From contig JAVZNE010000001.1 of the NCBI GenBank assembly GCA_038882975.1, positions 128,001 through 192,000 of the forward strand: DNA of 64,000 bases. The letters are read 5' to 3'. Source of the DNA: Candidatus Bathyarchaeia archaeon. GTDB taxonomy: Archaea > Thermoproteota > Bathyarchaeia > Bathyarchaeales > Bathycorpusculaceae. Position 1 is the first letter of the stretch. The number at the start of each line of letters is the position of its first letter. Under the pieces are notes generated by a model. That model had not been told where the DNA came from. It made no database searches and saw only the letters and a list, made by a program, of their open reading frames with translations. Shown here in pieces: positions 31,946-58,087 of this stretch. The position numbers and the translations under genes were made by a program.

Positions 31946-31954
31946 TCGTTCCTC

Positions 31955-32695: not shown

Positions 32696-32737
32696 CTATT
32701 CAAGTTCTCCCTATCAGAATAGTTTCACCAGCTTAAA

Positions 32738-34835: not shown

Positions 34836-34951
34836 ATGCTTAACCTTACAAATTAAGTCTCTTTATTTAATAGATGCACGTATAAACTTTACCCATTTCT
34901 AATCTTTGTTTCACTAAGTTCTAACTCGAAGTTTTAATTTGAACTTGAATG

Positions 34952-35953
34952 TTAACGTTTTATTTTGTTCCATAATACCATACTTCCAATAATTATCACA
35001 GGGTAGAAAATTATCCAAGTTATTGACATAATGGGGCCATAGAAATTGTGAAAAATCATCCAATTACCACGGTTCGCCGCTATCAGATAAATAAGGACGA
35101 CTCTTAGTATATTAATCAAATATGTTATCACTGCACCCACAACAAAGTAAATTATTTTTTGCCAGCGTAAGATGGCACTCTTCTTCAAAAAGAGCGTAAT
35201 TGTTAGGGTGTATATTATAAGACTTTCCACACCCGCGCAGGGCCAGGCAATGCCAAAACTAGCAAGAACCTTTGAGGGGCATGCTGGATCTAAGACGATT
35301 AATATTGGATAATAGCCATAACTGGCATTATAAATGGTGATTAGACGTGTAGGATACCCAAGCGTATTCAAAACGCCTTGAGCAAAATTTGCTGTTGGGA
35401 AGACTAGAGACTGAAATGGAGTAAAGCGACCAACAGGGTATAGCTGATCGGTTATGTATATCAGACCAGTGATTCCAAGAAAAATTATAGAGATGGAAAA
35501 TTCTTCCAGACGGGTTATTCCATAGGTGGATATTACTATAAGACATAGAAATATGGAAAAAACCAGATATTCCATTGAAAGAGGTAATAGACGAGCATGA
35601 AAAACTCCATTTCTCTCAGCCAGTGCCCTAATCGCCTCATTTAACCCGAAAAAGTTGGCGATTATAACATACACTGTGGGGAGCGAGATAAAAGTTACAA
35701 GAATAAACATTCTTTTCTTGTTAACTTGTGATAAAGAAAGTCTTTCATACCCGATAATAGTCTCTAAAAAGCAAATCCATAGGAAGAAAAAGTAGAAGAA
35801 TCTTCCCTGCCAATATCCCTCCCACGTGCCATAAAATGAATTAGAATAAAGAGAATGTAACACTAAAATAGGCGGTAAGAATGAAACGACGGGTAGAAAT
35901 TTTACGAAAATTTGGAAAACTTTGTGCAATGATAAGTTGAGCTTAACCTTCAT
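34952..35953 (-). CDS. Exosortase/archaeosortase family protein (thaumarchaeosortase-like)
   Basis: WQGR, WPCAGVES (Cys), NILRV (Arg), FHN (His), polytopic. Confidence 0.85.
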   Translation of the reverse strand: MKVKLNLSLHKVFQIFVKFLPVVSFLPPILVLHSLYSNSFYGTWEGYWQGRFFYFFFLWICFLETIIGYERLSLSQVNKKRMFILVTFISLPTVYVIIANFFGLNEAIRALAERNGVFHARLLPLSMEYLVFSIFLCLIVISTYGITRLEEFSISIIFLGITGLIYITDQLYPVGRFTPFQSLVFPTANFAQGVLNTLGYPTRLITIYNASYGYYPILIVLDPACPSKVLASFGIAWPCAGVESLIIYTLTITLFLKKSAILRWQKIIYFVVGAVITYLINILRVVLIYLIAANRGNWMIFHNFYGPIMSITWIIFYPVIIIGSMVLWNKIKR

Positions 35954-37527: not shown

Positions 37528-38068
37528 AGAACTTTTAAAATTTTGGAAAAAAGAAAATGACAGCGGTGAACTGGAGAGTCTTCCTTCTGATTTTTACTTT
37601 CAAATTGCAGAATATATGAAGAGGTTAAAGGAAGAGGAACGAATGATTGACAGAAAAACGCTCAAAGCAAACCTTTTGAAAATTGAAATGAAAAACGTCG
37701 AACATATGGTACGTCAACTTGCGAAAAAAAGGTATAAAAAGATTGTTCAGCTCTTAACAAAGGACCAAAAAATTCCATTTGACTTGCTGACAACTCACGA
37801 GAGAAATATGTTCGCCGAGAAAAATTTATCGTTTGCTGACGCTTTCAAAAATTTTCTTAACAATCTAATGAGGGGCTCCCTGACCGAAAATGTTGTTGAG
37901 ACTCCCAGAAAAATGGTTGTGGTACGCTTTCTTAAAGAGGTCCCAGCAATTGTTGGCACGGACATGAAAATTTATGGCCCTTTTAAGTGTGAGGATATAG
38001 CATCATTACCTTTTGAAAATGTTAAGATTTTAATCAAACAAAAGCTTGCTGAAAAAATAGACTTTTAG
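37517..38068 (+). CDS. GINS subunit Gins51/Psf1-like
   Basis: Helical A domain then VRFLKEVPAIVGTDMKIYGPF B domain; follows priS. Confidence 0.85.
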   Translation: MVYEELLKFWKKENDSGELESLPSDFYFQIAEYMKRLKEEERMIDRKTLKANLLKIEMKNVEHMVRQLAKKRYKKIVQLLTKDQKIPFDLLTTHERNMFAEKNLSFADAFKNFLNNLMRGSLTENVVETPRKMVVVRFLKEVPAIVGTDMKIYGPFKCEDIASLPFENVKILIKQKLAEKIDF

Positions 38069-42373: not shown

Positions 42374-44407
42374 TCAAGTCTTTTTCAAATAGCCTTCCCT
42401 AGGTTCGTATATAGTTCCTTCTCGCAGGAGTTGATTGATTAGGCGTTCAGCCTCGATTCTTGGAATCTTGTATTCTGTTTCAAGCCTGTTGATTAAGGCG
42501 TTTTTGTCAACCATTCCTATTTCTTTCTCCATTTCCGTCAGCACTGAAAGTAGCATTTGTAGCTTGTCTCTGAGGCTTTTGGGTTTTCCAGTCATTATGA
42601 GGTCTATGTCAAATTTGTATGAGGATAGGTCTATTCCAACCTCTTCCAGAGACTTTTTCATTATGTTTATGGCTGCTTCGGCGTCTTCTGCCAAAACTTC
42701 CGTTCTTAGGGCGGCTCTAGCTCTGGCTTCAGCTAGGCGTATAAGCGATTCCAATTGTCTGGCGGTTATCGCAATTGGGGAGCCCTCCGATTCACTTGCT
42801 GAACGCATAGCCAGATAGAAATCCCTTAAACGCTGCAGTGCCTCGCCAGTTAGGACTGGTTTTATCGTCTTTGCATAGCTTACGTATTTTCGCAAAAGTT
42901 CTAGAGATATGGGTGATTCCACGGGGCTTAAGCCTTTACGGTGAATTTCGAGGATGTGCTCCGACATCCTACCGTCTATTTCCTTGTTGGGAACATCCCT
43001 TAACACAAATATTAGGTCAAACCTTGAGAGGATGGTTACTGGAAGTGAAATGTTCTCCGCAATTGTTCGGCGGGATTCATATCTGCCCAAAGCAGGGTTG
43101 GCAGCCGCTAATATAGCTGTTCGCGCGTTAAGAGTTGCCACTATGCCGCCCTTCGCCACAGAAACCGTGTGCTGTTCCATGGCTTCATGGATTGCAACTC
43201 GGTCTTCCGGGCGCATCTTGTCTATCTCGTCTATACAAGCTATTCCCTTATCCGCAAGCACAAGGGCTCCGGCCTCAAGGCTCATTCCACCGCCCTTTTC
43301 GCGTATAACCGCTGCAGTCAAGCCAGCCGCGGTTGTCCCCCTACCAGAAGTGTAAAGTCCTCTAGGTGCAACCCGAGCCACATACTGCAATAGCTGGGAT
43401 TTGGCTGTTCCAGGGTCACCAACCAAAAGAATGTTCAATTCTCCCCTTATTGATATATCTGGAAGCGCCTTAGGAACGCCTCCAAAAAGCAGATACATAA
43501 TCGCCTCTTTGACGTGCTCGTAGCCGTAAATCGAAGGCGCAATAGAGTTTATTATTTTTCTGTGTATCCACGGATCCTTTGCAAGTTCAAGAATCTGCCT
43601 CTCCTCTTCCGGCGATGGAAGTGTTGCTTCAGGTTCTTTGCCTAAAACCTCGATGGAGTTTGTATCTAGGTGTAAGACGAAGGTGCGGAGTTTTCCAACC
43701 TTGGGCATGGTTGGGGCTGCAGCACGAACTATGCCAACGATTGAAACATGGTCGCCTGGTCTAGCCACATCTACAATCTCGCTTCCAACAAGCTTAACAT
43801 GTAATGTGCGTGGAAGCTGTCCCGGCGGGAGATCTTCTGGGCGTTCTTGTATGCGGAGGTCTTGTGAATCTATGAAGGTTGATTCTTCTTGAACGAAGTC
43901 GAAGGGTCCTTTTCGTCTACATGAAGGGTCAGCGCATGCAAAAGGTGCCTTAAGAAACGGGCCTGTTTGATCCACATATGTTATGTTTCCGCATCCTCTG
44001 CATTTGAAGGCGGCCCGCATCACCATTGGGCGGACTGGTGTTGAACGAACAACTATACCTTCAATCATCACCAGCTTTCCAATGTGGGCTGCGCCAAGTT
44101 TCCGCAGAGGCGTTGGCTCCAGAAGCCTAACAACTCGAACAGTTACCTTTTGTTTTTCTGCGTATTCTGGAGCCTCTATGGCTAGCTGGTTTTGGGCAGC
44201 ATTATCCGCGTGCTTTAAGTATTCATCTGGTTTCTCCAGAAGCTTATCCGCAAGTCTATGGTCGAAGGTGAGGATGTCTTCAAACTCAACTACGAGCGAT
44301 GTTTTCCCAGAAACAGCCAGCTGCGAAATCCGTTGACGATATTTCTCCGTTTTAAAAAGCTCTAGAAATCGTTCCTGCGGGTCTATTACTTCCAGCTCTT
44401 CAGTCAT
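42374..44407 (-). CDS. mcm: Replicative helicase MCM (no intein)
   Basis: GDPGTAKS, CIDEIDKM, SRFD, Zn-finger. Confidence 0.98.
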   Translation of the reverse strand: MTEELEVIDPQERFLELFKTEKYRQRISQLAVSGKTSLVVEFEDILTFDHRLADKLLEKPDEYLKHADNAAQNQLAIEAPEYAEKQKVTVRVVRLLEPTPLRKLGAAHIGKLVMIEGIVVRSTPVRPMVMRAAFKCRGCGNITYVDQTGPFLKAPFACADPSCRRKGPFDFVQEESTFIDSQDLRIQERPEDLPPGQLPRTLHVKLVGSEIVDVARPGDHVSIVGIVRAAAPTMPKVGKLRTFVLHLDTNSIEVLGKEPEATLPSPEEERQILELAKDPWIHRKIINSIAPSIYGYEHVKEAIMYLLFGGVPKALPDISIRGELNILLVGDPGTAKSQLLQYVARVAPRGLYTSGRGTTAAGLTAAVIREKGGGMSLEAGALVLADKGIACIDEIDKMRPEDRVAIHEAMEQHTVSVAKGGIVATLNARTAILAAANPALGRYESRRTIAENISLPVTILSRFDLIFVLRDVPNKEIDGRMSEHILEIHRKGLSPVESPISLELLRKYVSYAKTIKPVLTGEALQRLRDFYLAMRSASESEGSPIAITARQLESLIRLAEARARAALRTEVLAEDAEAAINIMKKSLEEVGIDLSSYKFDIDLIMTGKPKSLRDKLQMLLSVLTEMEKEIGMVDKNALINRLETEYKIPRIEAERLINQLLREGTIYEPREGYLKKT

Positions 44408-45006
44408 TTCTCCTTCTCCACGCCTCCTTCACTTTCGCTTTCAAGCATTTGAGCCTTCCACCTATTAATAAGCCTATAAATCTGCTCGTAAAGAATTCTC
44501 TCTTCTGCCATAAGGTTCCTTAAAACATGCTCGGTTTGGGCTGGGGCAGAAGCCAAGGAAACAATTTTCTTTAATCTTAAGTTTAAAATGTCCAGCGCCA
44601 ACTGTTTCGCCTTCTCATATTCCCGCATTTTCTCAGGATGCCTAACAGCCTCCTCTCTTAACCCATCAAGGTATCTGCGGAGTTTCGGATAAAAATCCTT
44701 GGGAAGTTCAGAAATTTGCCCAGCTGTTTGGACACGCTCCTTCCAATGAATCTTGTAAAGCTTGGTTGAGTCAAGCAGTTCCTCGCTTCTAAAGCGAACA
44801 ACACCAAACTTTTCAAGCTCTCTGGCAACCCAATACATAACCTCATACTCGTTTCCCTCCTCGAAGGGACCGACAATTAATCCTGCCAGCCTAATTTCCG
44901 GGCAGTTGCGGTTGGCAATAACCTTAACCGGCGAGTTCTCAAACATGAAGTCTAGGGCTTTAATTTTCCCGGAAATGCCCACCTGCAAAGCACTTTCTCC
45001 TTTCAA
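44404..45006 (-). CDS. GINS subunit Gins23/Psf2-like
   Basis: B-domain then A-domain order (WVARELEK..LPKDFY); immediately upstream of mcm. Confidence 0.82.
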   Translation of the reverse strand: MKGESALQVGISGKIKALDFMFENSPVKVIANRNCPEIRLAGLIVGPFEEGNEYEVMYWVARELEKFGVVRFRSEELLDSTKLYKIHWKERVQTAGQISELPKDFYPKLRRYLDGLREEAVRHPEKMREYEKAKQLALDILNLRLKKIVSLASAPAQTEHVLRNLMAEERILYEQIYRLINRWKAQMLESESEGGVEKEK

Positions 45007-45100: not shown

Positions 45101-46351
45101 TTAAGGCCACAAGCCCAAAGTCTTTATTGCCTCAGCCACCCGTCCTACTCCCAACATTAGGGCGGCTGTTCGCATGGGTTCCTTCGCATCTTTTGAGGTT
45201 TTGTAGACGTCGTTAAATGCCTTCACCATTTTTCTTTCAAGCTTCTGGTTCACTTCCTCTAAAGTCCAGTGCTCCCTTGTTAAGTTTTGAACCCATTCAA
45301 AGTAGCTTACTGTGACGCCGCCGGAGTTTGCTAATATGTCTGGAATTAAGAACACATCCTTTTCATTGAGCACTTTGTCGGCTTCTGGGGTTGTGGGTCC
45401 GTTGGCTCCCTCGGCTATTATTTTTGCTTTTATGTTGTTGGCGTTTGCTTTTGTAATCTGATTCTCTAATGCAGCGGGCACCAAAATGTCACATTCCAAC
45501 TGCAGCAACTCCTCATTAGTTATGTTCTTGCACCCTTCAAAGTTTAGGACGGAACCTGTTTTCGCCTTATGCTCGTAAACCTTGTAGGGGTTTAATCCTT
45601 CCTTGCAATAGATTCCTCCGCTGGAGTCGCTTACACCTATTATTTTGCATCCCCAATCGTAGGCTATTTTTGCGGCGTTCCATCCCACGCTGCCAAACCC
45701 TTGAACCACAAATCTTGCATCTTTCATTTTTAAACCGAGGATTTTTGCAGCTTCTCTTGCGCAAAACATAACACCAAGAGATGTAGCTTCAGCCCTTCCT
45801 TCAGAACCTCCAACACTTAAAGGTTTTCCAGTAACACATTCTGGGACACTGTAGCCTTTAAATTGGCTGTAAGTGTCCATTATCCAAGCCATTGTTTGGG
45901 CGTCTGTGTAAACGTCCGGCGCCGGCACGTCACGATATGGTCCAATTAGGTCTAAAATTAGGCTTATGTATCGCCTTGTTAGCCTTTCAAGTTCGCCTTT
46001 GGACATTTCCTTTGGGTTACAGCAAACTCCTCCTTTAGCTCCTCCATATGGAATATCAACGACAGCGCATTTCCAAGTCATCCACATGGCAAGGGCGGTA
46101 ACTTCGTCCAAGGTTACGTTTGGGTGGTATCTTATGCCGCCTTTAAAAGGTCCCCTCGCATCGTTGTGCTGAACACGACAGCCTAGGAACGTTTTGATTG
46201 TGCCATCATCCATCCTAATGTTAACAGAAACCATAAGCGTTCTTTTTGGATATTTTAGCATCTCATGCAGTCCGGGGTCAAGCTCAAGTTTTTCTGCGGC
46301 TATTCTTAACTGCTCCAGTGCAGTATCTAGAGCTGAGTAACTCTTTTCCAT
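45101..46351 (-). CDS. gdhA: Glutamate dehydrogenase (Glu/Leu/Phe/Val dehydrogenase family)
   Basis: [43 protein letters not shown]. Confidence 0.95.
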   Translation of the reverse strand: MEKSYSALDTALEQLRIAAEKLELDPGLHEMLKYPKRTLMVSVNIRMDDGTIKTFLGCRVQHNDARGPFKGGIRYHPNVTLDEVTALAMWMTWKCAVVDIPYGGAKGGVCCNPKEMSKGELERLTRRYISLILDLIGPYRDVPAPDVYTDAQTMAWIMDTYSQFKGYSVPECVTGKPLSVGGSEGRAEATSLGVMFCAREAAKILGLKMKDARFVVQGFGSVGWNAAKIAYDWGCKIIGVSDSSGGIYCKEGLNPYKVYEHKAKTGSVLNFEGCKNITNEELLQLECDILVPAALENQITKANANNIKAKIIAEGANGPTTPEADKVLNEKDVFLIPDILANSGGVTVSYFEWVQNLTREHWTLEEVNQKLERKMVKAFNDVYKTSKDAKEPMRTAALMLGVGRVAEAIKTLGLWP

Positions 46352-46430: not shown

Positions 46431-48038
46431 CTAGTCTAAAATTCTTTCTATGGCGTCTGCTTCTGCCTCGTGGGCTAATGGTATACCGGTTACTTTAGCT
46501 GCAAGCTCCGAGAGACTCATTAGGTCGTTTCTGTTGATTAGGTCTAGTCGCCATTTTCTTGCGCCAGCCAATAGCTGCTTTAGCCCAACACCTATGCGGT
46601 CCGTCAAGTAAGTGTATAGGGCTACAGCTTCCCACGGGATTTCCTTGAAACGTTCTCCATACTTTGCCTTTAGCTCTGGAACAGCTATGAAGAACTTCTC
46701 TGGAGTCGCACCAAACTTGTCGGCAAAAGCCTTTGGAAGTTTTCCCTCTTCAGCCAACTGTTTAAAGTAGCTTGCCTTCATCACAGCAGTGAGCGGGGAA
46801 CGGCCCATCAAAACAGCTTTTACGAATGGTCCATCTCCGAAGTTGCTCATGGCTATTGCCTTGAAAATTTGAGTTTCGTTTATGAATCCTCCAGCCATAA
46901 TAATGTCTGGCACGTAGCGGCCTTTCTTCTTCAATATTTGGGCGCACTTAAGCACTATGGCTTCTAGATAAACTGTTGGAATGCCCATCTCATCCATCAT
47001 TGGGACAGGGCTCATGCCTGTGCCGCCACCAGCCCCATCAAAGTATACAGCATCAATCTTTGCCTCAGAAGCTATTTTCAAGGTGTACGCCACTGCTGAT
47101 GGCCTGTAAGCGCCTGTTTTCAAGGTTACATGTTTTGCCCCCTGTTTCCTCAGCCATTCTATGTCCTCTATGACGTTTTTCTCTCCTGGTATGCCAACTC
47201 TGCTGTGCCTTTCAAAGGATTTGAATACGCCGTCTTTGAAGGCTTGCTGTACTGCTGGATCTTCTGGGTCTGGGATTACTATATAGCCCCTTTTCTTTAG
47301 CATTATAGCCCTTTCAAGGTCTCTTACGCGAACTTCGCCTCCTATGGCTTTTGCACCTTGTCCCCACTTTCTCTCTATAACATTGACCTCCAGCTTTGAT
47401 ATGGCGTAAACGTCTACGCCAAGCCTCTGATCTTCAACATTAGTTTGGACGGCTATTTCGCCGTATTCTCCATCCCAGAATTTTCTGAATAGGTCAACTC
47501 TGCGCTTTAGCTCCTTTGAGTAGGTTACTTTGCCGTTTGTAAATTGAGCTTCCGGATCCATGCCGCAGACGTTTTCTCCCACAATTATCATGGCGCCTGA
47601 AAGGGCTGTGCCTATGGCTAAGCCTTCCCAGTTTAGCCTCGCAACATCTGTGGAGCCAAAGGCACCACAGAGTATGGGAACTCTAAGCGGTATGCCGCCA
47701 ACTTTGGTTTCTATGTTCACGTTTGGGAAAAGCGCCAAATCCGGGTCTTCCTTTATTCCATGAGCCTCGAAGAGGCTTGCTTGTATATTGAAATGGGACC
47801 AGTCTAGGCCGAAGTCTTTTAGAGCTCCTGCGGTGCTGAAACCGAATTGTACGGGTTCTGGATAGAGGGCTTCCCTACCTCTGAATGCTGACAAGCCTAT
47901 TTCACACATTATTGGGCAGTCGCGGATGCATATGGGACACATGCCACTTGTGGGACTTGTGTCTTTGACGCGAGTTGTTGTTCCAGTTGTCGATTTCCCG
48001 TTGAGATAGGAGCTATTTCTGAAAACGCGTTCCGTCAT
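46431..48038 (-). CDS. FMN-binding glutamate synthase family protein (stand-alone)
   Basis: N-term CPICIRDCPIMCE, GENVCG, KWGQGAK, DGAGGGTGMSP. Confidence 0.85.
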   Translation of the reverse strand: MTERVFRNSSYLNGKSTTGTTTRVKDTSPTSGMCPICIRDCPIMCEIGLSAFRGREALYPEPVQFGFSTAGALKDFGLDWSHFNIQASLFEAHGIKEDPDLALFPNVNIETKVGGIPLRVPILCGAFGSTDVARLNWEGLAIGTALSGAMIIVGENVCGMDPEAQFTNGKVTYSKELKRRVDLFRKFWDGEYGEIAVQTNVEDQRLGVDVYAISKLEVNVIERKWGQGAKAIGGEVRVRDLERAIMLKKRGYIVIPDPEDPAVQQAFKDGVFKSFERHSRVGIPGEKNVIEDIEWLRKQGAKHVTLKTGAYRPSAVAYTLKIASEAKIDAVYFDGAGGGTGMSPVPMMDEMGIPTVYLEAIVLKCAQILKKKGRYVPDIIMAGGFINETQIFKAIAMSNFGDGPFVKAVLMGRSPLTAVMKASYFKQLAEEGKLPKAFADKFGATPEKFFIAVPELKAKYGERFKEIPWEAVALYTYLTDRIGVGLKQLLAGARKWRLDLINRNDLMSLSELAAKVTGIPLAHEAEADAIERILD

Positions 48039-48124
48039 ACATTTTTCACCTTTACGTTTGTAAACTGTGTGGAAGGTTTAAAATTCCATTCGCATTTAAA
48101 GGTTATCCTAAAAGTAACAAAAAA

Positions 48125-48141
48125 TGAACATTCTTGTACAT
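48125..48141. promoter_or_regulatory. Two TGWACAT boxes upstream of the glutamate synthase promoter
   Basis: TGAACAT 48125, TGTACAT 48135 (10-bp spacing). Confidence 0.6.
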
Positions 48142-48148
48142 TAGAAGG

Positions 48149-48901
48149 CTAGTGAATCTCTATATTCAACCCATCGACTATGTACTCTCGTCTTGTGTAG
48201 GTTTGGGGATTATATCTTCCACCAGCCTTCTTAATCCATAAGAAGTTCTTATTCTCCTGTCGAGTGAGGTCTATAACCACCTGTGTCATGTGCTCTATTA
48301 AAGCGCAGAACTCTTTGGGATGAGCATTTTTAGCCATAGTCCAGTAGGCGAGAGTTTGATAAGCATATAGCGCCGGGCAAACGTGTCCAAAGAAGGCTTT
48401 AACAGCATCCCTTCCCCAGTTGTGCTCCATTATCGATAAACTGTTAAAAATAAGTCTTGTACCAGGAGTAACAAATTCCCTTTCAATTCTTCCGAAGAAG
48501 TGGTGAAAACGGTCCGGATCCTTTGAGCTTGGAACTTTTCTAATCCAGCTTGGGGCTTTATCATAAAAATCGCTAAATATTAACTCGCCTTGCCCCGCAG
48601 CTTCTGAAAAACAATCTAAAACCAGTAGTTTCTTTTCCCAACCCTCCGGCAAAGTTTTGGTTAAGGGCTCTAATTGAAGCATAATTGCTTGAGGGGGATA
48701 AATAAATTCCAAATATATGACTTGGTTTCCTTCAATTATGCCCTGCCGCATAAAAGAGTATAAGAATTCCCTCGCAAATGTTCCAGATTCAACCTCCCAT
48801 AAAACATTTTCACCTAATAGCAATCCGCCGCCTAGGAGTTTGTCAAGTCCTTTAACCCCTGTTGAGTAGAAAACTTGCTTTTCGTTAGGGTTATTGGACA
48901 A
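48149..48901 (-). CDS. KaiC/RAD55-like RecA-fold protein with degenerate Walker motifs
   Basis: STGVKGLDKLLGGG; P-loop VESGTFARE (no Lys); Walker B LIFNS. Confidence 0.75.
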   Translation of the reverse strand: MSNNPNEKQVFYSTGVKGLDKLLGGGLLLGENVLWEVESGTFAREFLYSFMRQGIIEGNQVIYLEFIYPPQAIMLQLEPLTKTLPEGWEKKLLVLDCFSEAAGQGELIFSDFYDKAPSWIRKVPSSKDPDRFHHFFGRIEREFVTPGTRLIFNSLSIMEHNWGRDAVKAFFGHVCPALYAYQTLAYWTMAKNAHPKEFCALIEHMTQVVIDLTRQENKNFLWIKKAGGRYNPQTYTRREYIVDGLNIEIH

Positions 48902-48972
48902 TGAAATGCACCGAGGTAAGGTTCACAAGCATCATTAAAAATGTTGCGTCGTCATTTCAGATGTATTAATGG

Positions 48973-49019
48973 TGTACATTTGTGTACATTATGAACATAA
49001 TATTTCTATAGTTGAACAT
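48973..49019. promoter_or_regulatory. Four TGWACAT boxes in the divergent kaiC-like/gdh2 promoter
   Basis: Boxes at 48973, 48983, 48992, 49013. Confidence 0.7.
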
Positions 49020-49057
49020 AAGTCATATTAAGGCTCTAGAATGGGAAGAGGTGGAAA

Positions 49058-50842
49058 ATGAAAATGTTAAACTCTGTGGAGCTTTCCGCAAGAGAGTTGG
49101 GAATGCTTAAGCTGATGGTGGACTTCTTCGCTGAAAAACCTGAGCTGACCGCAAAAATAGAAAGCTACACAACAGCCCACTATGCCCTTCTAACAACGTA
49201 CTCAGAAAACTTTGGAATACCAATCGAAGACTCCCTGAAAGTTTTCGAGGAGCTCCAAAAGAAAATCACGGAAGCTGAATATGTCCATGTTAAGGCACCA
49301 GAGCCCATAAGGAAGCTTCTACCCTTGACTACTGAGGAGTTGAACATGCTGCGAATTCTTGTGGACTATTTCTCTGAAAATCCAAAAATGGCGTCTGCGG
49401 GTTCGATGTTTTCAAGGAAGGAAGACGCCGTTGCCGAAACCTACATGTGGTTTTATGGAAGTAAGGAAGGAAACGGCGAAGTGGCAAGACAAATTCTAAC
49501 AAATCTCGTCGAGAAGCTTCAAACAGCTGTATTTGTAAAAATAGATACTTTGGCGCCCTTAGCTGTTACGCCAAACCCTTACGAAGCCGCCCTTAAGCAG
49601 TTGGACATCGCAGCTGAAAAACTGAAACTTGACCCTGGCATTCATGAAATTTTGAAGCGCCCCATGCGCACCTTAATAGTTAATATTCCAGTGGTTATGG
49701 ATGATGGGAGCATTCAAGTTTTTACGGGTTACCGTGTACAATATAACGATGCATTAGGTCCAACTAAGGGCGGCATAAGATACCACCCAGAGCTAACACT
49801 AAATGAAGTCACGGCACTGGCGGCATGGATGACGTGGAAAACGGCAGTTGTAGGGCTGCCACTAGGAGGAGCCAAAGGCGGAATCAGATGCAATCCCAAA
49901 GAAATGTCCAAAGCTGAATTGGAGCGCCTAACAAGGGGATATGTGCGGGCTATTGCGAAATTTATAGGTCCAAACATTGATGTGCCGGCGCCGGACGTTT
50001 ACACAGACGCCCAAACAATGGCTTGGATAATGGATGAATACAGCGAAATCGTTGGATACCCAGCCTTCGGGGTTGTAACAGGCAAACCTGTAGGCGTTGG
50101 TGGTTCCCGTGGAAGGAGCGAAGCAACTTCAAGAGGCTTAATGTACACGGTGATAGAGGCAGCCAAATACTTAGGGATAAACCTCAAGGGTGCAACTGTA
50201 GCTGTGCAAGGCTATGGAAATGTTGGATACCATGCGGCACGCCTACTGCATGAGGTTGGATGCAAAATCATAGCAGTTTCAGACTCAAAAGGCGGAATAT
50301 ACAACCTCAACGGGCTAGACCCAGAAAAAGTGTTGGAACACAAAAACAGAACAGGCTCGGTGGTTGACTACCCCGAAAGCACATTCATAACAAACGAACA
50401 ACTGTTGGAGCTAGAATGTGACATTCTTGTGCCCGCTGCATTAGAGAACCAGATAACAAAAGCAAACGCCAACAACATAAAAGCAAAAATAATAGCCGAG
50501 GGAGCCAACGGACCCACAACCCCAGAAGCCGACGAAATTCTATTCAAAAAAGGAGTATTTGTAATACCGGACATTCTGGCGAATTCTGGCGGCGTTATTG
50601 TAAGCTACTTTGAACAAGTGCAGAACCAGATGAACTATTATTGGACCGAGGAGGAAGTGCGGAACAAACTGAAAGAAACAATAACTAAGGCTTTCTACGA
50701 TGTCTTAGAACTTTCCAAACAGTATAATGTGAATATGCGCGTAGCCGCCTACATGTTGGCTGTCAAAAGAGTTGCCGACGCCCTCACGGCAAGAAAGGGA
50801 ACAAGACTCGCACCCATTGAATCTTTGCTAGCACGCAGATAG
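49058..50842 (+). CDS. Glutamate dehydrogenase with ~170-aa duplicated N-terminal extension
   Basis: Full GDH core from [10 protein letters not shown] ([20 protein letters not shown]); extension of two ~80-aa repeats. Confidence 0.9.
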
Positions 50843-50860
50843 CTCCCTCCTTTTTCTATG

Positions 50861-50894
50861 TGTTCACATGTACATTTTCAGAAAACGTGAACAT
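50861..50894. promoter_or_regulatory. Three TGWACA boxes upstream of the putative regulator
   Basis: TGTTCA 50861, TGTACAT 50869, TGAACAT 50888. Confidence 0.65.
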
Positions 50895-50939
50895 GTTTAA
50901 AAGCAGCCTTTAAAATAAGTAAACACGACGTGAAGCCTT

Positions 50940-52895
50940 ATGTCTGTTCACCTCCACACAACAATAACAAAAAAGGCAAATGACATACTTGAAGAATTGG
51001 CAAAGACTTATGGCACAAAAAGCCGCGTCCTCGAAAAAGCCCTAGAAACCCTGCTTAGAGTGGATAAAGTTGGCTCATGTGACGACTGCGCCATAAAGGC
51101 TAAAGTAAACGAGCAAACCAAGCTAAGAGAAGCCCTTGACCTAGCCTCAATAAGCAGAAGAAACCTAGACAGCCTTCTAGAAATAGCCATAGGAAATAAA
51201 ACAATTGAGGATTTTATAAAGGAACAAAAAGCAGAAGCAAAAAACACCATAGAAATCCTCAAAAGCTCCATCAGCTGGAAGCCCCCATCAAACTTTAAAG
51301 AATTCCTTATAGTCCTGGAGGAAATTAGAAATCTCACAAACATGTATGAAATACCATCCTACAGCGAAATCGACAATATAGCAATTTTAAGACCAAAAGT
51401 TTTCAAGCGTTTGCCGATAATAGTCGCCTTTCATGTTGCCACAATATTGGAAGGAATAGGGGTCTACTTCGATGTCCGCGTCATGGGCGAGGACATAGCC
51501 ATAAAAATGGTGAGGCCAGAAGTTTACCCCTTAAGGAAGAAAGAATTCGGAGAATTCCTCGAAGAACGAATTGAAAAGGAATTAGCAAATGTTACTCCAG
51601 GATTTTTCAAAAACACTCTTATGCTTGTTGGACCAGCCTTCATGAGCTGGGCAGAAAAACATCTAGAAGAGCCAATATCAGATTTGGGCAATCTTTTAGA
51701 GGATGCCAGAACCGTTTTAGGAGTAGACGAGTTTCCAAAGGAGCCAAGGGATTTTGTAAAGGCCCTATTATCCGCGTTTGTAAAAATGAACTGGTTTAGA
51801 CAGGCAAAGGTTTTAATTGAGAAGGATGAAAACGTCTTGGAGCTTGTTTTCCAAGCTGCATCAGCTTCAATAACGCGAATGTCTGTTGCAGCCTTATCAG
51901 TTATGTTAGCGACTCGAGGGTGGAAAACGCTAAACTATTCAACAGAACACGCAACAGTCAACATGACAATTCAATATGTGGGTGCGGAAGACCAAAGTCT
52001 TCAAGATCAGCTGGCCGAGTTAAGCCTTTTCCAAGTTATAGGCAAACAATTTTTGGATGTTATTCCTGTCCCACGCGACCTTTTCAACTCTTTCGCTTTA
52101 AAAGTCTATGAAAGTGACAAGCGAAAATTTGAGGAGATATATCGTGCAACTGGGACACGCATATCTAATGCTATCCGCATGTTAGCAAGAAATGACCCTG
52201 AAAAAATTAGAAGACTTGCAAAAAACTTCATCCTTAAAAATATTAATGTAACCCAGCCAGATGCTGAGGTTCGCTTCGTGGATGATGAGCACTTTACCAT
52301 AATTTTCAAGCGTATAGACCCTCTCGTAATGAACAGCCAAAGAGTTCTAATAGAATCCATGTTCAAAGAATTGGGTTACGAGGTAACGACAACAGCTTTC
52401 CAAAATCTCTTAAGCTTCAAACTAAAACTTTTGGAAAAGCCGATACTTGCGCCGCTGCCACGGAAAAAACTAATGCAAACATTAATTGAAGGTATGTCAT
52501 GCAACTCTGTAGAGGAGGCATTTGCCATAGAAAAAGAGCAGCTTGATGAACTATTTCCAGAGGACTACCCATGGACAATAAGGGAAGTTGGCGAAAGAAT
52601 CACAGATATGTACAGAGAACTCGGAGTAGAAATTGAAATAGAATATTTTGAGGGGGGTTTCACCCTCAAATACAAAAGCTGCCCATATTACAAACTTGTA
52701 AAAACGGGACAAAAAACGTGGCTTTGCAGCCTCCGCAAAAAAACAATCGAATATATAATCTCACGGGTAAGCCACGGGAAAAAGGGCAAGATAAAAATCA
52801 TAAAGTCCCTACTACAAAACGAGCATCCATGTGAATACGCAATATTTTTAACAGGATTTCTTGAAAGGGAAGAGAAAGCCGAAGCCCAAGAATAG
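50940..52895 (+). CDS. Putative regulator: N-terminal ribbon-helix-helix-like + repeated V4R/MetOD1-like domains
   Basis: VHLHTTITKKANDILEELAKTYGTKSRVLEKAL; CDDC; C-term FTLKYKSCPY..WLC..KSLLQNEHPCEY. Confidence 0.55.
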   Translation: MSVHLHTTITKKANDILEELAKTYGTKSRVLEKALETLLRVDKVGSCDDCAIKAKVNEQTKLREALDLASISRRNLDSLLEIAIGNKTIEDFIKEQKAEAKNTIEILKSSISWKPPSNFKEFLIVLEEIRNLTNMYEIPSYSEIDNIAILRPKVFKRLPIIVAFHVATILEGIGVYFDVRVMGEDIAIKMVRPEVYPLRKKEFGEFLEERIEKELANVTPGFFKNTLMLVGPAFMSWAEKHLEEPISDLGNLLEDARTVLGVDEFPKEPRDFVKALLSAFVKMNWFRQAKVLIEKDENVLELVFQAASASITRMSVAALSVMLATRGWKTLNYSTEHATVNMTIQYVGAEDQSLQDQLAELSLFQVIGKQFLDVIPVPRDLFNSFALKVYESDKRKFEEIYRATGTRISNAIRMLARNDPEKIRRLAKNFILKNINVTQPDAEVRFVDDEHFTIIFKRIDPLVMNSQRVLIESMFKELGYEVTTTAFQNLLSFKLKLLEKPILAPLPRKKLMQTLIEGMSCNSVEEAFAIEKEQLDELFPEDYPWTIREVGERITDMYRELGVEIEIEYFEGGFTLKYKSCPYYKLVKTGQKTWLCSLRKKTIEYIISRVSHGKKGKIKIIKSLLQNEHPCEYAIFLTGFLEREEKAEAQE

Positions 52896-52965
52896 CCTTT
52901 TTAGAAAGCTAAACAAGTATTTATTAACTGTTCCTTTATTATGAAAAGGGTAGGAGGCTTTCCAA

Positions 52966-53943
52966 TTGAGTTTTGAGATGTGGGCTGAAAAGTACAGACC
53001 AAAAACATTGGACGAGATGGTGAACCAGAAGGAGATAGTGGAACGCCTTAAAAGCTTCGTTAAAGCCAAAAACGTGCCCCACTGCATTTTCGCCGGACCG
53101 CCCGGCACTGGTAAGACTACGGCGGCTCTTTGTTTGGCAAGAGACCTTTACGGCGAATCCTACCGCGAATATATTATGGAGTTGAACGCCAGCGACGAGA
53201 GGGGCATAGATGTTGTACGGGAAACCGTTAAAACCTTTGCGAGAGTGCGCTCCATCGGTGAGGTTCCATTTAAGATAATGATTTTGGATGAGGCGGATAA
53301 CATGACTGCAGATGCTCAGCAAGCTTTGAGGCGGACTATGGAGCGCTATACGGAAACATGCCGATTCATATTGTGCGCCAATTATAGCGGGAAAATAATA
53401 GAGCCCATACAGTCGCGTTGTGCACCCTTCCGCTTTACATACTTGCCACGCGAGGAACATGATAAGTATTTGCGGTACATAGCAGAAAACGAGGGCGTAA
53501 AACTTCTAAATGATGGGCTGGACGCCATCTACGAGGTTTGTGGCGGAGACCTACGAAGGGCAATAAACACTTTGCAAGCAGCCGCTTCGCTTGGCAAACC
53601 TATAGACGCAAAAATTGTTTATTCAATTGCTGGAAGAGCCAACCCAGCAGACGTGCAGAAAATGATTGAAACAGCCATGAGGGGCGACTTCCTTGAGGCG
53701 CGAAAACAGCTCCGAGAAATGATTCAGAAATATGGAGTGGCTGGAAGCGACATAATCCGCCAAATCCACACAGAAATTTTCAGGGCAGACATTCCAGAAC
53801 CATGGAAAATAAAATTGGCAGACATTGTTGGAGAAATCGATTATAGGCTTGTTGAGGGCGCGGATGAAGAGGTCCAATTAAGCGCACTGCTAGCCAGACT
53901 CGTGGAGGCAGCCTATGAAATTAGGGGCTCAAGAAAGGTGTAA
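52966..53943 (+). CDS. rfcS: Replication factor C small subunit
   Basis: WAEKYRP, GPPGTGKT, LNASDERG, QSRC. Confidence 0.97.
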   Translation: MSFEMWAEKYRPKTLDEMVNQKEIVERLKSFVKAKNVPHCIFAGPPGTGKTTAALCLARDLYGESYREYIMELNASDERGIDVVRETVKTFARVRSIGEVPFKIMILDEADNMTADAQQALRRTMERYTETCRFILCANYSGKIIEPIQSRCAPFRFTYLPREEHDKYLRYIAENEGVKLLNDGLDAIYEVCGGDLRRAINTLQAAASLGKPIDAKIVYSIAGRANPADVQKMIETAMRGDFLEARKQLREMIQKYGVAGSDIIRQIHTEIFRADIPEPWKIKLADIVGEIDYRLVEGADEEVQLSALLARLVEAAYEIRGSRKV

Positions 53944-53946
53944 AAT

Positions 53947-55215
53947 GTGTATCAGCCTTGGACCGTTAAGTATAAGCCAAAAAGCTTGAGAGAGGTTGTT
54001 GGAAATCGGGAAGCCATACAAAAGTTTGTTGAATGGGTAAAATCATGGGATAAGGGAATCCCGAAAAAGAGGGCAGCCTTCCTTTATGGTCCGCCAGGTG
54101 TTGGGAAAACTGTTACTGTGGAGGCTTTGGCAAACGATTTTAGAATGGAGTTGGTGGAGAAAAATGCCAGCGACTATAGAACAGAAGAGGCCGTTAAACG
54201 CTTTGCTGGACTTGCATCCCAATATGGCTCATTATTCGGCACGAGAAGGATAATACTATTCGATGAGTTGGACGGTTTAACTGGAACAGCGGACAAGGGC
54301 GGAGTTAAAGCCATAACAGACATAATAAAAACGGCTCAATGTCCAATAGTGCTTATCGCCAACAACGCTTTTGACCCACGGTTTACTAACCTACGCAACT
54401 ACTGCCTCCTAATAGAGTTTAAAAAGCCCCCAACAACCGAAGTTCAAAAACATTTGAAGGCTATATGCCAAAAAGAAGGTATAGACGCGGAGGAAAACGC
54501 CTTAAAGTTTATAGCTCAACGCTCAGAGGGCGACATCCGCTCCGCTGTAACAGACCTCCAAGCTTTGGCGCAGGGCAAGAAACGTCTAAAATATGAGGAT
54601 GTTGCGTGGCTGGGCTTCAGAGACCGTCAAGAGACAATATTCACAGTTTTGAGAATGATTTTGTATGGAAAAACATGCGAAGGAGCTAAACGCGCAGTGA
54701 ACATGGCGGACGTGGACATCGACATGCTCTTTGAATGGATATACGAGAATGTTCCAGCCCATCTAACAGACCCCCACGACTTGGCAACCGCTATGGATGC
54801 CCTTTCAATGGCTGACGTTTACCGTGGAAGAATAAGAAGCACACAAGACTGGAGTTTCATACGCTACGTAATCGACTTCATGACAGCCGGTGTAGCCATG
54901 GCAAGAGTAAACACAAAAACTTCCGGTTGGACTCCATTTCGTTTCCCAGAACGGATACAAGCATTATCTAGGTCTAAGGAGGAACGGGCAATGCAGTTAG
55001 AGATAGGCAGAAAAATTAAGCGCAGATGCCACATATCAGCCATAAGAGCCTTGAAAGAAGTTTTGCCATATCTGCGGATAATCTTTAAAAACAGTGTGGA
55101 GATGGCTGCTGGAATCGCAATGTGGCTTGACCTAAACCGGGAGATGGTTGAGTATTTAGCTGAAAGCAAGGAAAAGGCTGAAGCAATAAACAAGTTTCTG
55201 AGTCAACGCACTTAG
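53947..55215 (+). CDS. rfcL: Replication factor C large subunit
   Basis: WTVKYKP, GPPGVGKT, NASDYR, WIYEN. Confidence 0.95.
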   Translation: MYQPWTVKYKPKSLREVVGNREAIQKFVEWVKSWDKGIPKKRAAFLYGPPGVGKTVTVEALANDFRMELVEKNASDYRTEEAVKRFAGLASQYGSLFGTRRIILFDELDGLTGTADKGGVKAITDIIKTAQCPIVLIANNAFDPRFTNLRNYCLLIEFKKPPTTEVQKHLKAICQKEGIDAEENALKFIAQRSEGDIRSAVTDLQALAQGKKRLKYEDVAWLGFRDRQETIFTVLRMILYGKTCEGAKRAVNMADVDIDMLFEWIYENVPAHLTDPHDLATAMDALSMADVYRGRIRSTQDWSFIRYVIDFMTAGVAMARVNTKTSGWTPFRFPERIQALSRSKEERAMQLEIGRKIKRRCHISAIRALKEVLPYLRIIFKNSVEMAAGIAMWLDLNREMVEYLAESKEKAEAINKFLSQRT

Positions 55216-57793: not shown

Positions 57794-57997
57794 CTAACTG
57801 CTTTGCGGCTGTTTTTCCTGTTCTTGCCAGCGCTCGATGAGTAATTTGTCGTCTCCGATCTTAAAGCTTACTTTTACAAATATGGAGTCTGAGCCTTTGA
57901 AGGGGAACATGCTGTCTTCAGCTAAGTCCTTTGGCAAGTATATCAGGAATTTGCCGTCCTTCCTTCTGAATAATCTGCCTTTTCCTTCATTAACCAT
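57794..57997 (-). CDS. Small AbrB-like (swapped-hairpin) protein
   Basis: KFLIYLPKDLAEDSMFPF; GAGGTG SD upstream of ATG at 57997. Confidence 0.6.
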   Translation of the reverse strand: MVNEGKGRLFRRKDGKFLIYLPKDLAEDSMFPFKGSDSIFVKVSFKIGDDKLLIERWQEQEKQPQSS

Positions 57998-58087
57998 GGG
58001 TTGCACCTCGATGAAAGCGATTTTGAACACCAATGAATAAAAAGCGAGTTATTTAACCTTTACTCCGTGCCATAAATACATAAAGCC

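Follow-up and report, generated by a model that had tools for sequence, protein, structure and literature searches.

What does a long, conserved protein annotated only as hypothetical do when its gene lies directly behind that of a glutamate dehydrogenase (GDH)? Next to nothing is known of gene regulation in Bathyarchaeia and Asgard archaea, which abound in sediments and have not been cultivated, and the question arises here from a stretch of 64,000 nucleotides of a Candidatus Bathyarchaeia genome (the window). An original prediction, made from the letters alone, had read the protein as a multi-input one-component sensor-regulator with a ribbon-helix-helix (RHH)-like N-terminus, a CxxC motif and tandem V4R/MetOD1-like modules. 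We report that the protein appears to be a DNA-binding switch not described before; it carries four modules of the small-molecule-sensor type and most likely controls the neighbouring glutamate-metabolism genes via conserved short DNA boxes. At a probability of roughly 60%, we take it to be a one-component transcription factor, an autoregulated repressor of glutamate metabolism.

The reading frame is a real gene rather than a chance one. Matches at E≤1e-3 number 492 database proteins, of which the top 120 have lengths of 633–659 residues and identities of 73–96%. Relatives are encoded in 91 stretches of GTDB species genomes, 80 of which were retained as loci, and the family also occurs in Hermod-, Prometh- and Thorarchaeota MAGs. 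In two quick trees the Asgard copies group as a single clade (SH-aLRT 100) nested among the Bathyarchaeia rows; since monophyly of Bathyarchaeia is not rejected by an AU test (p 0.067), we claim no direction of transfer. More distantly, two relatives (P0153, P0160) retain the N-terminus with module A and have a REC domain at their C-terminal end, which points to a signalling-protein architecture. Asgard relatives of about 500 residues, among them paralogue pairs in Helarchaeota, lack module D and keep the remaining parts; the taxonomy of the ten distant relatives is that of their few named members. NCBIfam gave no match to the protein, and literature searches on MetOD1, KaiC-like/V4R, RHH/GDH and Bathyarchaeota GDH regulators returned no description of it or of its regulon. 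Queries of PDB sequences with the protein itself, with profiles of the family and of its N-terminus, and with two distant relatives brought up no RHH, V4R or H-NOX entry. For residues 52–350 the ESM Atlas yielded only unnamed archaeal clusters, at a score of 0.80 that corresponds to chance level, and for residues 1–58 no usable match. One of these chance-level clusters has 10% of its members labelled PF27313 (AF_0136_C), a family outside the Pfam copy used; a literature search on AF0136 brought up unrelated accession numbers only.

Table. Positions in the window of the genes, candidate operators and protein parts discussed in the text.
Feature	Positions	Strand	Description
Second, ordinary GDH	45101–46351	-	Putative further regulon member in Bathyarchaeia
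GltB-like gene (glutamate-synthase domain)	46431–48038	-	Putative further regulon member in Bathyarchaeia
GltB-like promoter box pair	48125–48140	.	TGAACA-N4-TGTACA (minus strand TGTACA-N4-TGTTCA), upstream of TATA box
KaiC/RadA-like protein, inactivated (iKaiC)	48149–48901	-	Without Walker A; divergent from GDH; third trio member
Divergent iKaiC-like/N-extended GDH promoter	48973–49018	.	TGTACA 48973, TGTACA 48983, TGAACA 48992, TGAACA 49013
Glutamate dehydrogenase, N-extended	49058–50842	+	Immediately upstream of the target in 58/59 loci
Own promoter boxes	50861–50903	.	TGTTCA 50861–50866, TGTACA 50869–50874, TGAACA 50888–50893
Target ORF	50940–52895	+	651 aa, ATG-initiated; annotated "hypothetical protein", conserved in Bathyarchaeia and in some Asgard archaea
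RHH-like N-terminus, residues 1–45	50940–51074	+	Strand / helix A / G-T-K-S turn / helix B
Invariant C47-x-x-C50	51078–51089	+	Directly after helix B
Module A, residues 89–192	51204–51515	+	Helices-ββ-α-ββ; common to distant relatives ending in a REC domain
Module B, residues 196–346	51525–51977	+	Helices-ββ-α-ββ; lowest conservation among the modules (36% identical to Asgard)
Module C, residues 350–502	51987–52445	+	Four helices and a 4-stranded sheet; Bet3/TRAPPC3-H-NOX-BcsD (V4R-class) fold
Module D, residues 505–645	52452–52874	+	MetOD1-like; invariant C581, C596, H629, C631

Three genes keep together across the family's loci. An inactivated KaiC-like gene, the divergent N-extended GDH and the target gene downstream of it form a conserved trio in 58 of the 59 loci with at least 2.7 kb of upstream sequence; locus L069 has the same trio genes, rearranged, and the GDH lies upstream of the target gene in all 10 Asgard loci. 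Both partners are unusual: the N-terminal extension of the GDH, about 172 residues long, consists of two repeats of about 80 residues, and a Walker A motif is found in 0 of 34 iKaiC rows. The original prediction had noted V4R/MetOD1 domains as frequent companions of archaeal KaiC-like ATPases. KaiC-like domains are linked to HalOD1 and REC, not to MetOD1, in the passages of PMC5847659 consulted; at the present loci an inactivated KaiC-like gene is all the same a conserved neighbour. No DNA-binding family is seen in the other trio members. The GDH extension was considered as an alternative DNA binder and rejected: it matches nothing consistently in Pfam or PDB and does not resemble the modules of the target.

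The two intergenic regions of the trio share a set of short boxes. TGTACA and TGAACA flank the TATA boxes of both trio promoters at spacings of about 10 bp and 21 bp, giving the operator consensus TGTwCA-N4-TGTACA-N3-TGnACA-TATA-TGAACA. Within the target's own promoter, which lies downstream of a T-rich stretch behind the GDH stop codon, the last box abuts a TATA-like TTTAAAAG at 50896–50903, and in the divergent promoter a TATA-like TTTCTATA (48992 and 49013 being the TGAACA boxes to either side) occupies 49003–49010. At least two boxes occur in both intergenic regions in 60/60 loci, at densities of 28/kb and 19/kb compared with 1.0/kb elsewhere; for TGTACA alone the figures are 13.7 and 9.6/kb against 0.19/kb. 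Across 38 non-redundant promoters the boxes are conserved and the spacers are not. The GltB-like promoter likewise carries at least two boxes in 39 of 41 loci. Three or more boxes within 60 nt are found in the window in the two intergenic regions only (shuffle mean 0.05), and all 150 adjacent box pairs detected in 937 kb fall in trio or GltB-like promoters; of these, 147 occupy the expected zones and the other 3 relocated copies.

Part of this conservation is shared ancestry, the loci being related, and the TGAACA beside the TATA box may in part simply be the BRE. That the target protein binds the boxes, and not an unlinked factor, we infer from their linkage. With these provisos, the trio linkage and the presence of TGTACA/TGAACA boxes at the trio and GltB-like/GDH promoters are new here, and the boxes at the target gene together with its conserved neighbours give the sensor-regulator idea strong independent support. 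A search of Rfam over 47900–53100 returned snoR35 only, at a chance-level E of 0.27, so we see no riboswitch in the intergenic regions. A GTTCAC...GTGAAC inverted repeat, present in the window, was also considered as the conserved unit and set aside: it recurs in 1 of 69 other upstream regions, and it is the hexamer boxes that are conserved instead.

Could the protein read such boxes? The AlphaFold model shows the layout foreseen in the original prediction, a strand-helix-helix followed by CxxC and a series of alpha/beta modules, and the strings that the prediction quoted are all present in the translated ORF: VHLHTTIT (residues 3–10), KKANDILEELAKTY (11–24), GTKSRVLEKALETL (25–38) and C47-D-D-C50 at the N-terminus, ILEGIGVYFDVRV (169–181), MLATRGWKTL (322–331), MFKELGYEVTT (474–484) and MYRELGVEIEIEY (557–569) in the modules, and the Cys motifs SCPY (580–583), WLC (594–596) and HPCEY (629–633). 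Within about 45 residues lies an RHH-type pattern of short strand, helix A, G-x-[S/T/N]-type turn and helix B, in the order VHLHTTIT, KKANDILEELAKTY, G25-T-K-S and RVLEKALETLLRV; DSSP on the model assigns coil to residues 1–10 and helix to 11–24 and 27–43. Residues 1–45 are also the most conserved part of the protein, with 80% identity between Bathyarchaeia and Asgard members compared with 36–59% in the other domains, and H4, H6, T7, T8, G25 and K27 are invariant.

Profile searches are less clear. RHH_3 scores E 0.21 and 12 bits on the target N-terminus (Pfam cut-off 21.6) and matches 11 of 42 members, best at E 0.01 and none reaching the cut-off; the other 31 have no RHH_3 match even at E≤10. 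PSK_trans_fac matches 5 of the 42, weakly and below cut-off. The divergent member P0163 matches RHH_1 at E 0.0021 (18.4 bits, cut-off 20.5) and RepB-RCR_reg at E 0.014, and a second divergent member, P0160, matches ParD at E 0.049. PDB sequence searches with P0001, A1, A5 and P0163 found no RHH protein at E≤10, and among the best 60 of the 228 PDB matches of P0160 there are REC-domain proteins only. The predicted RHH N-terminus thus stands as a sequence pattern, with strand-helix-helix in the model, but no RHH profile is significant, and we regard the N-terminus as consistent with an RHH domain. The cysteines that follow it, C47 and C50, are kept in 78/78 full-length family rows, and CxxC in 5/5 distant 500-aa relatives; they may form a metal or redox site.

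Behind the N-terminus and CxxC, the AlphaFold model shows four helices-ββ-α-ββ modules. The strings described as helix-then-beta proved to be, by DSSP, the helix between strands 2 and 3 in modules A–C, and in module D the helix that precedes strand 1. Modelled alone, module C reaches pLDDT 87.2 and pTM 0.79, with helices at 30–43, 45–67, 71–89 and 112–128 and strands at 94–99, 102–106, 131–138 and 141–148 of the model, and thus has the layout of the V4R/TRAPPC3(Bet3)/H-NOX class (about four helices and a four-stranded antiparallel sheet); the order of elements is the same in modules A, B and D of the full model. Foldseek aligns module C with TRAPP Bet3/Trs31/Trs33, H-NOX and BcsD (E 2e-4 to 7e-3, probability 0.94–1.0), at TM 0.29–0.55 and rmsd 5–15 Å. 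The top E-values belong to 7u05_F (2e-4), 3tf8_B (4.7e-4) and 8poc_A (8.2e-4), and 3kxc_C and 2c0j_B align at TMt 0.50 and rmsd 5.0–5.2; the matches listed for module C include no V4R chain (PoxR/MopR). According to PMC10933270, TRAPPC3, V4R (PoxR), H-NOX and CeSD have one common ligand-binding fold with a Cys-Zn tether, and V4R/TRAPPC3 domains dimerise via their N-terminal helices. Neither Pfam V4R (PF02830) nor HNOB (PF07700) matches the target at E≤1 or any of 62 members at E≤0.01.

Module D is placed by family. MetOD1 (PF18546) scores 17.4 bits on the target (cut-off 23.8, E 0.0046; residues 552–635 on positions 58–141 of 142) and, among 62 members, finds 55 at E≤0.01, the strongest at 3e-5; a precomputed PF18546 label is attached to 3 of the 120 listed database matches and to 2 of 74 shorter ones. 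Module D has three conserved Cys that may correspond to the cluster of three highly conserved Cys described for MetOD1 (PMC5847659): C581 and C596 occur in 78/78 full-length rows, and H629 and C631 in 77/78, the remaining row having a gap. This Cys3His cluster probably holds a structural Zn, and C521 is variable (33 C, 43 A, 2 S). A stand-alone C-terminal domain was not found among the 74 shorter matches, all of them fragments of the same family and at least 56% identical.

The MetOD1-like end of the original prediction is thereby supported. Its tandem V4R-like modules are supported for module C, which alone falls into the Bet3/H-NOX/BcsD fold class at the TM-scores given above, but there is no Pfam V4R match and the sequences are not demonstrable repeats. 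We do not claim the modules as repeats of one domain, since in hhalign comparisons B and C alone give a signal, and a weak one (E 1.6e-3, probability 6.5% global and 13% local) and the other pairs among A–D give short or out-of-register matches at E≥0.008. Overall, the assignment of the four modules to the V4R/H-NOX/Bet3 type is partly shown, C being placed by predicted fold, D by family and A and B by topology; on that basis the protein would present V4R/Bet3-class modules in a tandem four-module array.

We propose that residues ~1–45 form a ribbon-helix-helix that would dimerise and read the palindromic TGTACA as well as the variant TGAACA. By occupying the BRE/TATA/start region the protein would keep TBP/TFB out, leading to repression and autorepression. 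The remaining ~600 residues, as four V4R/H-NOX/Bet3-type modules, may bind at least one metabolite that signals the state of glutamate, 2-oxoglutarate or nitrogen supply, or mediate oligomerisation, or both, and would thereby tune the occupancy of the boxes. The multi-input sensing of the original prediction, the ligand and the sign of regulation are proposals, repression being read from the position of the boxes. A more speculative possibility, which we hold only tentatively, is that the protein acts as the master regulator for glutamate and nitrogen metabolism in these Bathyarchaeia and in some Asgard archaea. It would then be the functional equivalent of NrpR, assembled from wholly different parts, in which the RHH would sit on TGTACA arrays, four V4R-class pockets would integrate several metabolites (e.g., 2-oxoglutarate, glutamate and a redox or metal signal via CxxC and Cys3His), and docking onto the GDH N-extension and iKaiC would create one complex controlling both enzyme activity and transcription. 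The outcome is a testable regulon, with a candidate regulator, an operator consensus and targets central to amino-acid and nitrogen metabolism, and it places the unusual GDH, with its duplicated N-terminal extension, in a functional context. Should the regulator be confirmed, GDH expression in environmental transcriptomes of Bathyarchaeia and Asgard archaea would become interpretable mechanistically.

NikR, MetJ and PutA are regulators in which an RHH domain is joined to, or governed by, a ligand-binding part. As we propose for the target, they place an N-terminal RHH-type end before sensor or enzymatic domains in one chain; MetJ also acts on repeated short operator boxes (met-boxes), and PutA, too, is a large RHH protein of several domains, which autoregulates a locus for amino-acid catabolism. 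Their other domains differ, NikR having an ACT-like metal domain and PutA dehydrogenase domains where the target has CxxC and four putative V4R/H-NOX-class modules, and the target, unlike true RHH members, has no significant sequence match to the RHH families. NrpR, the euryarchaeal nitrogen repressor, is an HTH protein. It is similar in outline to what we propose for the target, namely an archaeal repressor of nitrogen/glutamate genes with promoter-overlapping operators and a metabolite response, but it has another operator, and no sequence or fold relation between the two is known. TRAPPC3/Bet3-like and V4R proteins of Asgard archaea (Thor-TRAPPC3) recall module C, whose best Foldseek matches are Bet3-family, H-NOX and BcsD; proteins of that type are single-domain homodimers, whereas modules A–C lack a Cys-Zn site and the structural similarity stays within the TM range above. 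XylR, DmpR, MopR and PoxR combine a V4R-class ligand pocket, Cys-bound Zn and transcription control within one polypeptide (PMC5847659; PMC10933270). The target would resemble them in joining a V4R-class part to transcription control in the same chain, but they have one V4R, an AAA+ domain and a C-terminal HTH and act on sigma-54 in bacteria, whereas the target combines four modules with an RHH-like end at the N-terminus, lacks AAA+, goes with archaeal TATA-type promoters and has no Pfam V4R match. MetOD1 response regulators of methanogens (e.g., MA2445) share with the target family a C-terminus of ~140 residues that matches PF18546 in 55 of 62 members and has three Cys; the target's own score lies below the gathering cut-off. 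MetOD1 is described (PMC5847659; 10.1101/2024.10.04.616672) as occurring with REC or PAS in Methanobacteria and Methanomicrobia and as being of unknown function; against this form, which stands alone or after REC/PAS in methanogens, the target, from Bathyarchaeia and Asgard archaea, carries it as the last of several domains behind an RHH-like N-terminus, and the present locus is a first functional context for the domain.

The protein might instead not bind DNA at all and serve as a scaffold or allosteric partner of the N-extended GDH and iKaiC through Bet3/V4R-type dimerisation, an unlinked factor reading the boxes. The strict linkage of the trio fits such a role, as do the Foldseek matches to Bet3-family proteins and BcsD, which are protein-protein assembly modules, the N-terminal-helix dimerisation described in PMC10933270, the unexplained and apparently non-catalytic parts of both partners (the duplicated GDH extension and the missing Walker A of iKaiC) and an RHH without statistical confirmation. 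We nevertheless consider this unlikely: conservation peaks in the 45 residues with the RHH pattern, the REC-fused relatives retain exactly that N-terminus, and the target's own promoter carries boxes in every one of the 60 loci, as is typical for autoregulated factors. Scaffolding and DNA binding are, moreover, compatible with each other.

Two further readings appear improbable to us, the second especially so. Module D could be an enzyme, e.g., a C–S bond hydrolase like ATC hydrolase, and the main role of the protein catalytic. MetOD1 and ATC hydrolase have three Cys in common, for which related activity is suggested in PMC5847659, and Cys3 plus His is invariant in the target family, but the same paper equally connects these residues with a Zn site that is non-catalytic, the one in the V4R sensors PoxR and MopR, no enzyme family in Pfam or NCBIfam matches the target, and the ~500-aa relatives dispense with module D while keeping the rest. 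Alternatively, the N-terminus could be a helix-hairpin-helix (HhH)-like non-specific DNA binder working with the adjacent replication factor C (RFC) genes in DNA replication or repair. Its best specific PDB profile match is indeed an HhH-region segment of NAD-dependent DNA ligase (E 0.0036 with A5, 0.036 with A1), and the genes for the small and large RFC subunits lie 70 nt downstream of the target in the window. That match, however, covers 29 helical residues and omits the invariant strand H4–T8, and the RFC small-subunit gene lies within 600 nt downstream in 32/60 loci and in 0/10 Asgard loci, against a GDH linkage of 58/59. The boxes, finally, favour sequence-specific recognition.

The 651-aa protein is encoded by a single ORF with an ATG start, and every motif quoted in the original prediction is found where it was placed in the translation; the observation is confirmed. 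Among 7,993 candidates scored, 492 proteins match it at E≤1e-3; the best 120 of these are 633-659 aa long, 73-96% identical to it and, where the source is named, annotated as 'hypothetical protein' of Bathyarchaeia. In a library of 50%-identity representatives only 42 proteins match at the same threshold: one full-length cluster representative, several ~500-aa relatives (21-26% identity) and, for the remainder, fragments. A survey of one genome per GTDB species yielded 91 encoding stretches, 80 of which were kept as loci, mostly from Bathyarchaeia; ten full-length copies, about 50% identical, are from MAGs whose titles name Hermodarchaeota, Promethearchaeota or Thorarchaeota. Judged by its conservation, this is a real, conserved gene, and its neighbours in the window are archaeal (among them MCM, GINS, two glutamate dehydrogenases (GDH), GltB-like, KaiC-like, RFC small and large subunits, endonuclease V and a TYW1-like radical-SAM enzyme).

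The 5' end of the gene is contained in 71 loci, 59 of them with at least 2.7 kb of upstream sequence. All but one of them (58 of 59) have, immediately upstream and in the same orientation, a GDH bearing the same N-terminal extension, and past this GDH a divergently oriented KaiC-like gene; in the remaining locus, L069, all three genes are present but rearranged. In contrast, only 32 of 60 loci, and none of the 10 from Asgard, have RFC-S in the 600 nt that follow the gene, so we take the trio to be the conserved unit and the replication genes to be incidental neighbours. The Walker A motif GxxGxGK[ST] is absent from the KaiC-like protein in 34/34 orthologue rows; by its sequence, this trio member is an 'inactivated KaiC' (iKaiC), permanently linked to GDH and the 651-aa protein. 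Internally duplicated (hhalign probability 97.6%, E 4e-12), the GDH extension is conserved across both Bathyarchaeia and Asgard and shows no similarity to the modules of the 651-aa protein and no Pfam or PDB family match. In five loci (L013, L019, L020, L023, L035) RFC-S stands ~3 kb past the gene instead of ~0.1 kb, implying a ~3-kb insertion between them. The window is rich in replication genes.

Positions of genes, promoter elements and protein units (window nucleotides unless residues are indicated)
Feature	Position	Strand	Remarks
651-aa protein	50940-52895	+	
KaiC/RadA-like protein (iKaiC)	48149-48901	-	best Pfam match PAXNEB (Elp4-like), E 2.3e-10; KaiC match below cut-off
GDH with N-extension	49058-50842	+	extension 49058-49573, ~172 aa, two ~80-aa repeats
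Second, ordinary GDH	45101-46351	-	
GltB-like protein, 535 aa	46431-48038	-	glutamate-synthase central domain E 5.7e-11; N-terminal CxxCxxxCxxxC cluster
Boxes, promoter of 651-aa protein	TGTTCA 50861, TGTACA 50869, TGAACA 50888		last box abuts TATA-like TTTAAAAG
Boxes, divergent iKaiC-GDH region	TGTACA 48973, TGTACA 48983, TGAACA 48992, TGAACA 49013		TATA-like TTTCTATA 49003-49010
Third site, TGT[AT]CA-N4-TGTTCA	48125-48140		~20-25 nt upstream of GltB-like TATA box
Primase small subunit, Gins51	36310-38068		
MCM, GINS-like	42374-45006		
RFC small and large subunits	52966-55215		
Low-GC stretch	28335-35953		GC 0.35-0.37 vs ~0.43
tRNA-Val(GAC), tRNA-Ser(TGA)	12275-12540		divergent, ~100 nt apart
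79-aa ORF	57794-58033	-	between translin-like and TYW1-like genes
N-terminus, AlphaFold2 model	residues 1-43		coil 1-10, helices 11-24 and 27-43
Units A, B, C, D, AlphaFold2 model	residues 89-190, 232-346, 379-497, 508-638		

Both trio promoters carry arrays of hexamer boxes (TGTACA, TGAACA and variants), and these two intergenic regions are the only places across the 64-kb window with at least three boxes within 60 nt (shuffle mean 0.05, maximum 1). In the promoter of the 651-aa protein, the boxes lie between the ATG and the T-rich run trailing the GDH stop codon. Each intergenic region holds at least two boxes in all 60 loci that have both, where box density is 28.0/kb and 19.1/kb in the two regions vs 1.01/kb in the remaining 719 kb, and that of the palindrome TGTACA alone is 13.7 and 9.6/kb vs 0.19/kb. 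The consensus of 38 promoters, each <85% identical to the others, reads TGTaCA-N4-TGTACAT-N-ATGnACATAA-NgTTTCTATA-N-TTGAACAT, the boxes and the TATA element carrying much information and the spacers little. In Asgard, the protein's own promoters have three TGTACA boxes ~21 bp apart, sandwiching a ATTAATAAA element. The GltB-like promoter is also equipped: of 41 loci, 39 have two or more boxes there and 40 have one or more. Adjacent box pairs with N3-4 spacing number 150 over all 71 loci (937 kb), of which 147 fall within the three promoter zones expected to hold them; the remaining three belong to relocated GltB-like promoters (L034, L050) and the rearranged L069 cluster. Across the surveyed loci, the box array proves common to the trio promoters and specific to them. 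A GTTCAC...GTGAAC inverted repeat, noticed before the boxes, shows no conservation of its own.

The N-terminus had been predicted to be RHH-like. Residues 1-45 follow the pattern of an RHH monomer (alternating strand VHLHTTIT, helix A, a G25-T-K-S turn, helix B), and the secondary structure of the AlphaFold2 model agrees with it. This strand-helix-helix pattern stands, but statistical support for an RHH domain is weak: RHH_3 matches the 58-residue N-terminus at E 0.21, PDB profile searches with the N-terminus returned no RHH protein, and the protein is not demonstrably in any Pfam RHH family. Among the N-termini of 42 members, 11 match RHH_3 (best E 0.01) and 5 match PSK_trans_fac, a family of RHH type, but Spo0A_C, too, has 10 matches; of the distant relatives, P0163 matches RHH_1 (E 0.0021) and RepB-RCR_reg (0.014), and P0160 matches ParD (E 0.049). 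Bathyarchaeia and Asgard sequences are 80% identical over residues 1-45 vs 36-59% over the rest of the domains, and the putative ribbon has four invariant residues, H4, H6, T7 and T8. Two of the distant relatives, P0153 and P0160, have the N-terminus and module A in common with the 651-aa protein and carry a bona fide receiver (REC) domain at their end (Pfam E 1e-17 and 5e-23, respectively; PDB REC matches down to 2.7e-16). This conservation and the REC-ended relatives indirectly favour the N-terminus as a DNA-binding output domain.

The full-length model (30-row alignment, mean pLDDT 72.6, pTM 0.40) places C47-x-x-C50 in a low-confidence stretch after the N-terminal helices, followed by four successive units (modules A-D) of one common order: several helices, a beta-hairpin, a single helix and a second hairpin. 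Profile-profile comparison did not demonstrate the modules as sequence repeats, B vs C alone aligning in register (E 1.6e-3, probability 6.5-13%). Foldseek with the whole model found nothing in the PDB at E≤0.001; its specific matches, all weaker than this, are H-NOX domains and TRAPP Bet3-family subunits. Because this search leaves the matching query part unstated, module C was modelled alone (residues 350-502, 47-row alignment), with confidence (pLDDT 87.2, pTM 0.79). It matches TRAPP Bet3/Trs31/Trs33 chains, H-NOX proteins, BcsD and a few de novo designed proteins at E 2e-4 to 7e-3 and probability 0.94 to 1.0, with TM-scores of just 0.29-0.55 and rmsd of 5-15 Å. Given these matches and the ligand-binding fold common to TRAPPC3 (Bet3), V4R (PoxR), H-NOX and CeSD (PMC10933270), module C as modelled appears to belong to the V4R/Bet3/H-NOX class, at modest structural similarity; its predicted topology is common to modules A and B. 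The protein is not demonstrably a Pfam V4R member. V4R is described as a small-molecule-binding domain frequently fused to transcription or signalling domains (PMC2253512), and in this fold class a Cys-bound Zn is reported to tie sheet to helix (PMC10933270).

Only module D gives a sequence signal at the level of a family. Pfam MetOD1 (PF18546) aligns its positions 58-141 of 142 with residues 552-635 at E 0.0046 and 17.4 bits (gathering cut-off 23.8), and matches 55 of 62 family members scanned singly at E≤0.01 (best E 3e-5), making the last module a borderline MetOD1 member. PMC5847659 relates MetOD1 to the HNOB, V4R and ATC-hydrolase domains and notes its three conserved Cys; in an M. acetivorans preprint its function is 'yet unknown' (10.1101/2024.10.04.616672). 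All 78 full-length rows (68 Bathyarchaeia, window included, and 10 Asgard) have C581 and C596; H629 and C631 are found in 77 of them, the other having a gap. This Cys3His site would most simply hold a structural Zn, as described for PoxR (PMC10933270). C47 and C50 are likewise invariant in the 78 rows and kept in 5/5 distant ~500-aa relatives. The original interpretation is partly supported, by the V4R-class fold predicted for module C and the MetOD1-like cysteine module D, but not as regards a statistically significant RHH domain or Pfam V4R membership; the conserved trio and box arrays sharpen it considerably.

Taken as a whole, the data make it fairly probable (about 0.6) that the protein is a one-component regulator of glutamate metabolism acting through the boxes. 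Its N-terminus would dimerise into a ribbon-helix-helix, each dimer reading one hexamer, as a six-base palindrome fits the two-fold symmetry of such a ribbon; the 10- or 21-bp box spacing would then set neighbouring dimers on one DNA face. Boxes abutting or flanking TATA elements, once occupied, would exclude TBP and TFB and thereby repress GDH, the KaiC-like gene and the regulator itself; for the two boxes ahead of the GltB-like TATA element, another mode of action is conceivable. The four modules may serve effector binding and/or oligomerisation, and the nature of the target genes suggests an effector reporting glutamate, 2-oxoglutarate or nitrogen status.

The main alternative, that the protein acts as a partner to GDH and the KaiC-like protein without binding DNA, would sit well with the linkage of the three genes and the PDB searches of the N-terminus; we consider it unlikely, given the promoter-specific boxes and the REC-ended relatives. 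Two minor alternatives are an enzymatic MetOD1 module, for which the three Cys that MetOD1 shares with ATC hydrolase speak (PMC5847659) and against which the ~500-aa relatives lacking module D stand, and an HhH-like N-terminus with a replication-linked role. The latter could draw on the best specific PDB match of the N-terminal profile, a helical stretch of 29 residues in NAD-dependent DNA ligase (E 0.0036), and would have to accommodate the inconstant RFC-S linkage.

NikR, MetJ and PutA are RHH regulators with appended sensor parts, which the proposed one-component regulator resembles in function, as it does the V4R-sensor regulators MopR and PoxR; by role it resembles NrpR. A full-text search of the literature (main texts) found no description of this architecture, box motif or regulon, and the analysis adds a defined candidate operator and regulon for a one-component regulator.

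In quick trees the full-length copies from Asgard are a single clade (SH-aLRT 100) nested among Bathyarchaeia rows, but Bathyarchaeia as a clade of its own survives an AU test (p 0.067); transfer between phyla is possible. Ten Asgard MAGs (L057-L059, L061-L065, L067, L077) hold the whole trio with box arrays. Among 27 rows of ~500-aa relatives, which lack module D, five bear Helarchaeota and Promethearchaeota names and one further row the bacterial label Deferrimicrobium. The locus tags of P0242 and P0248 (named Helarchaeota) directly follow one another, which, with P0230/P0231 and P0234/P0235 (the latter two pairs from equal-sized contigs only), suggests adjacent paralogue pairs; such pairing of relatives without the MetOD1-like module hints at heteromeric pairs.

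Elsewhere in the window, the low-GC stretch resembles a surface-glycan island, with genes for glycosyltransferases, dTDP-sugar epimerase/reductase-type enzymes and an exosortase/archaeosortase-like membrane protein, besides one 865-aa and one 199-aa ORF with no Pfam match. The 79-aa ORF has, by eye only, a small AbrB/SpoVT-type look.
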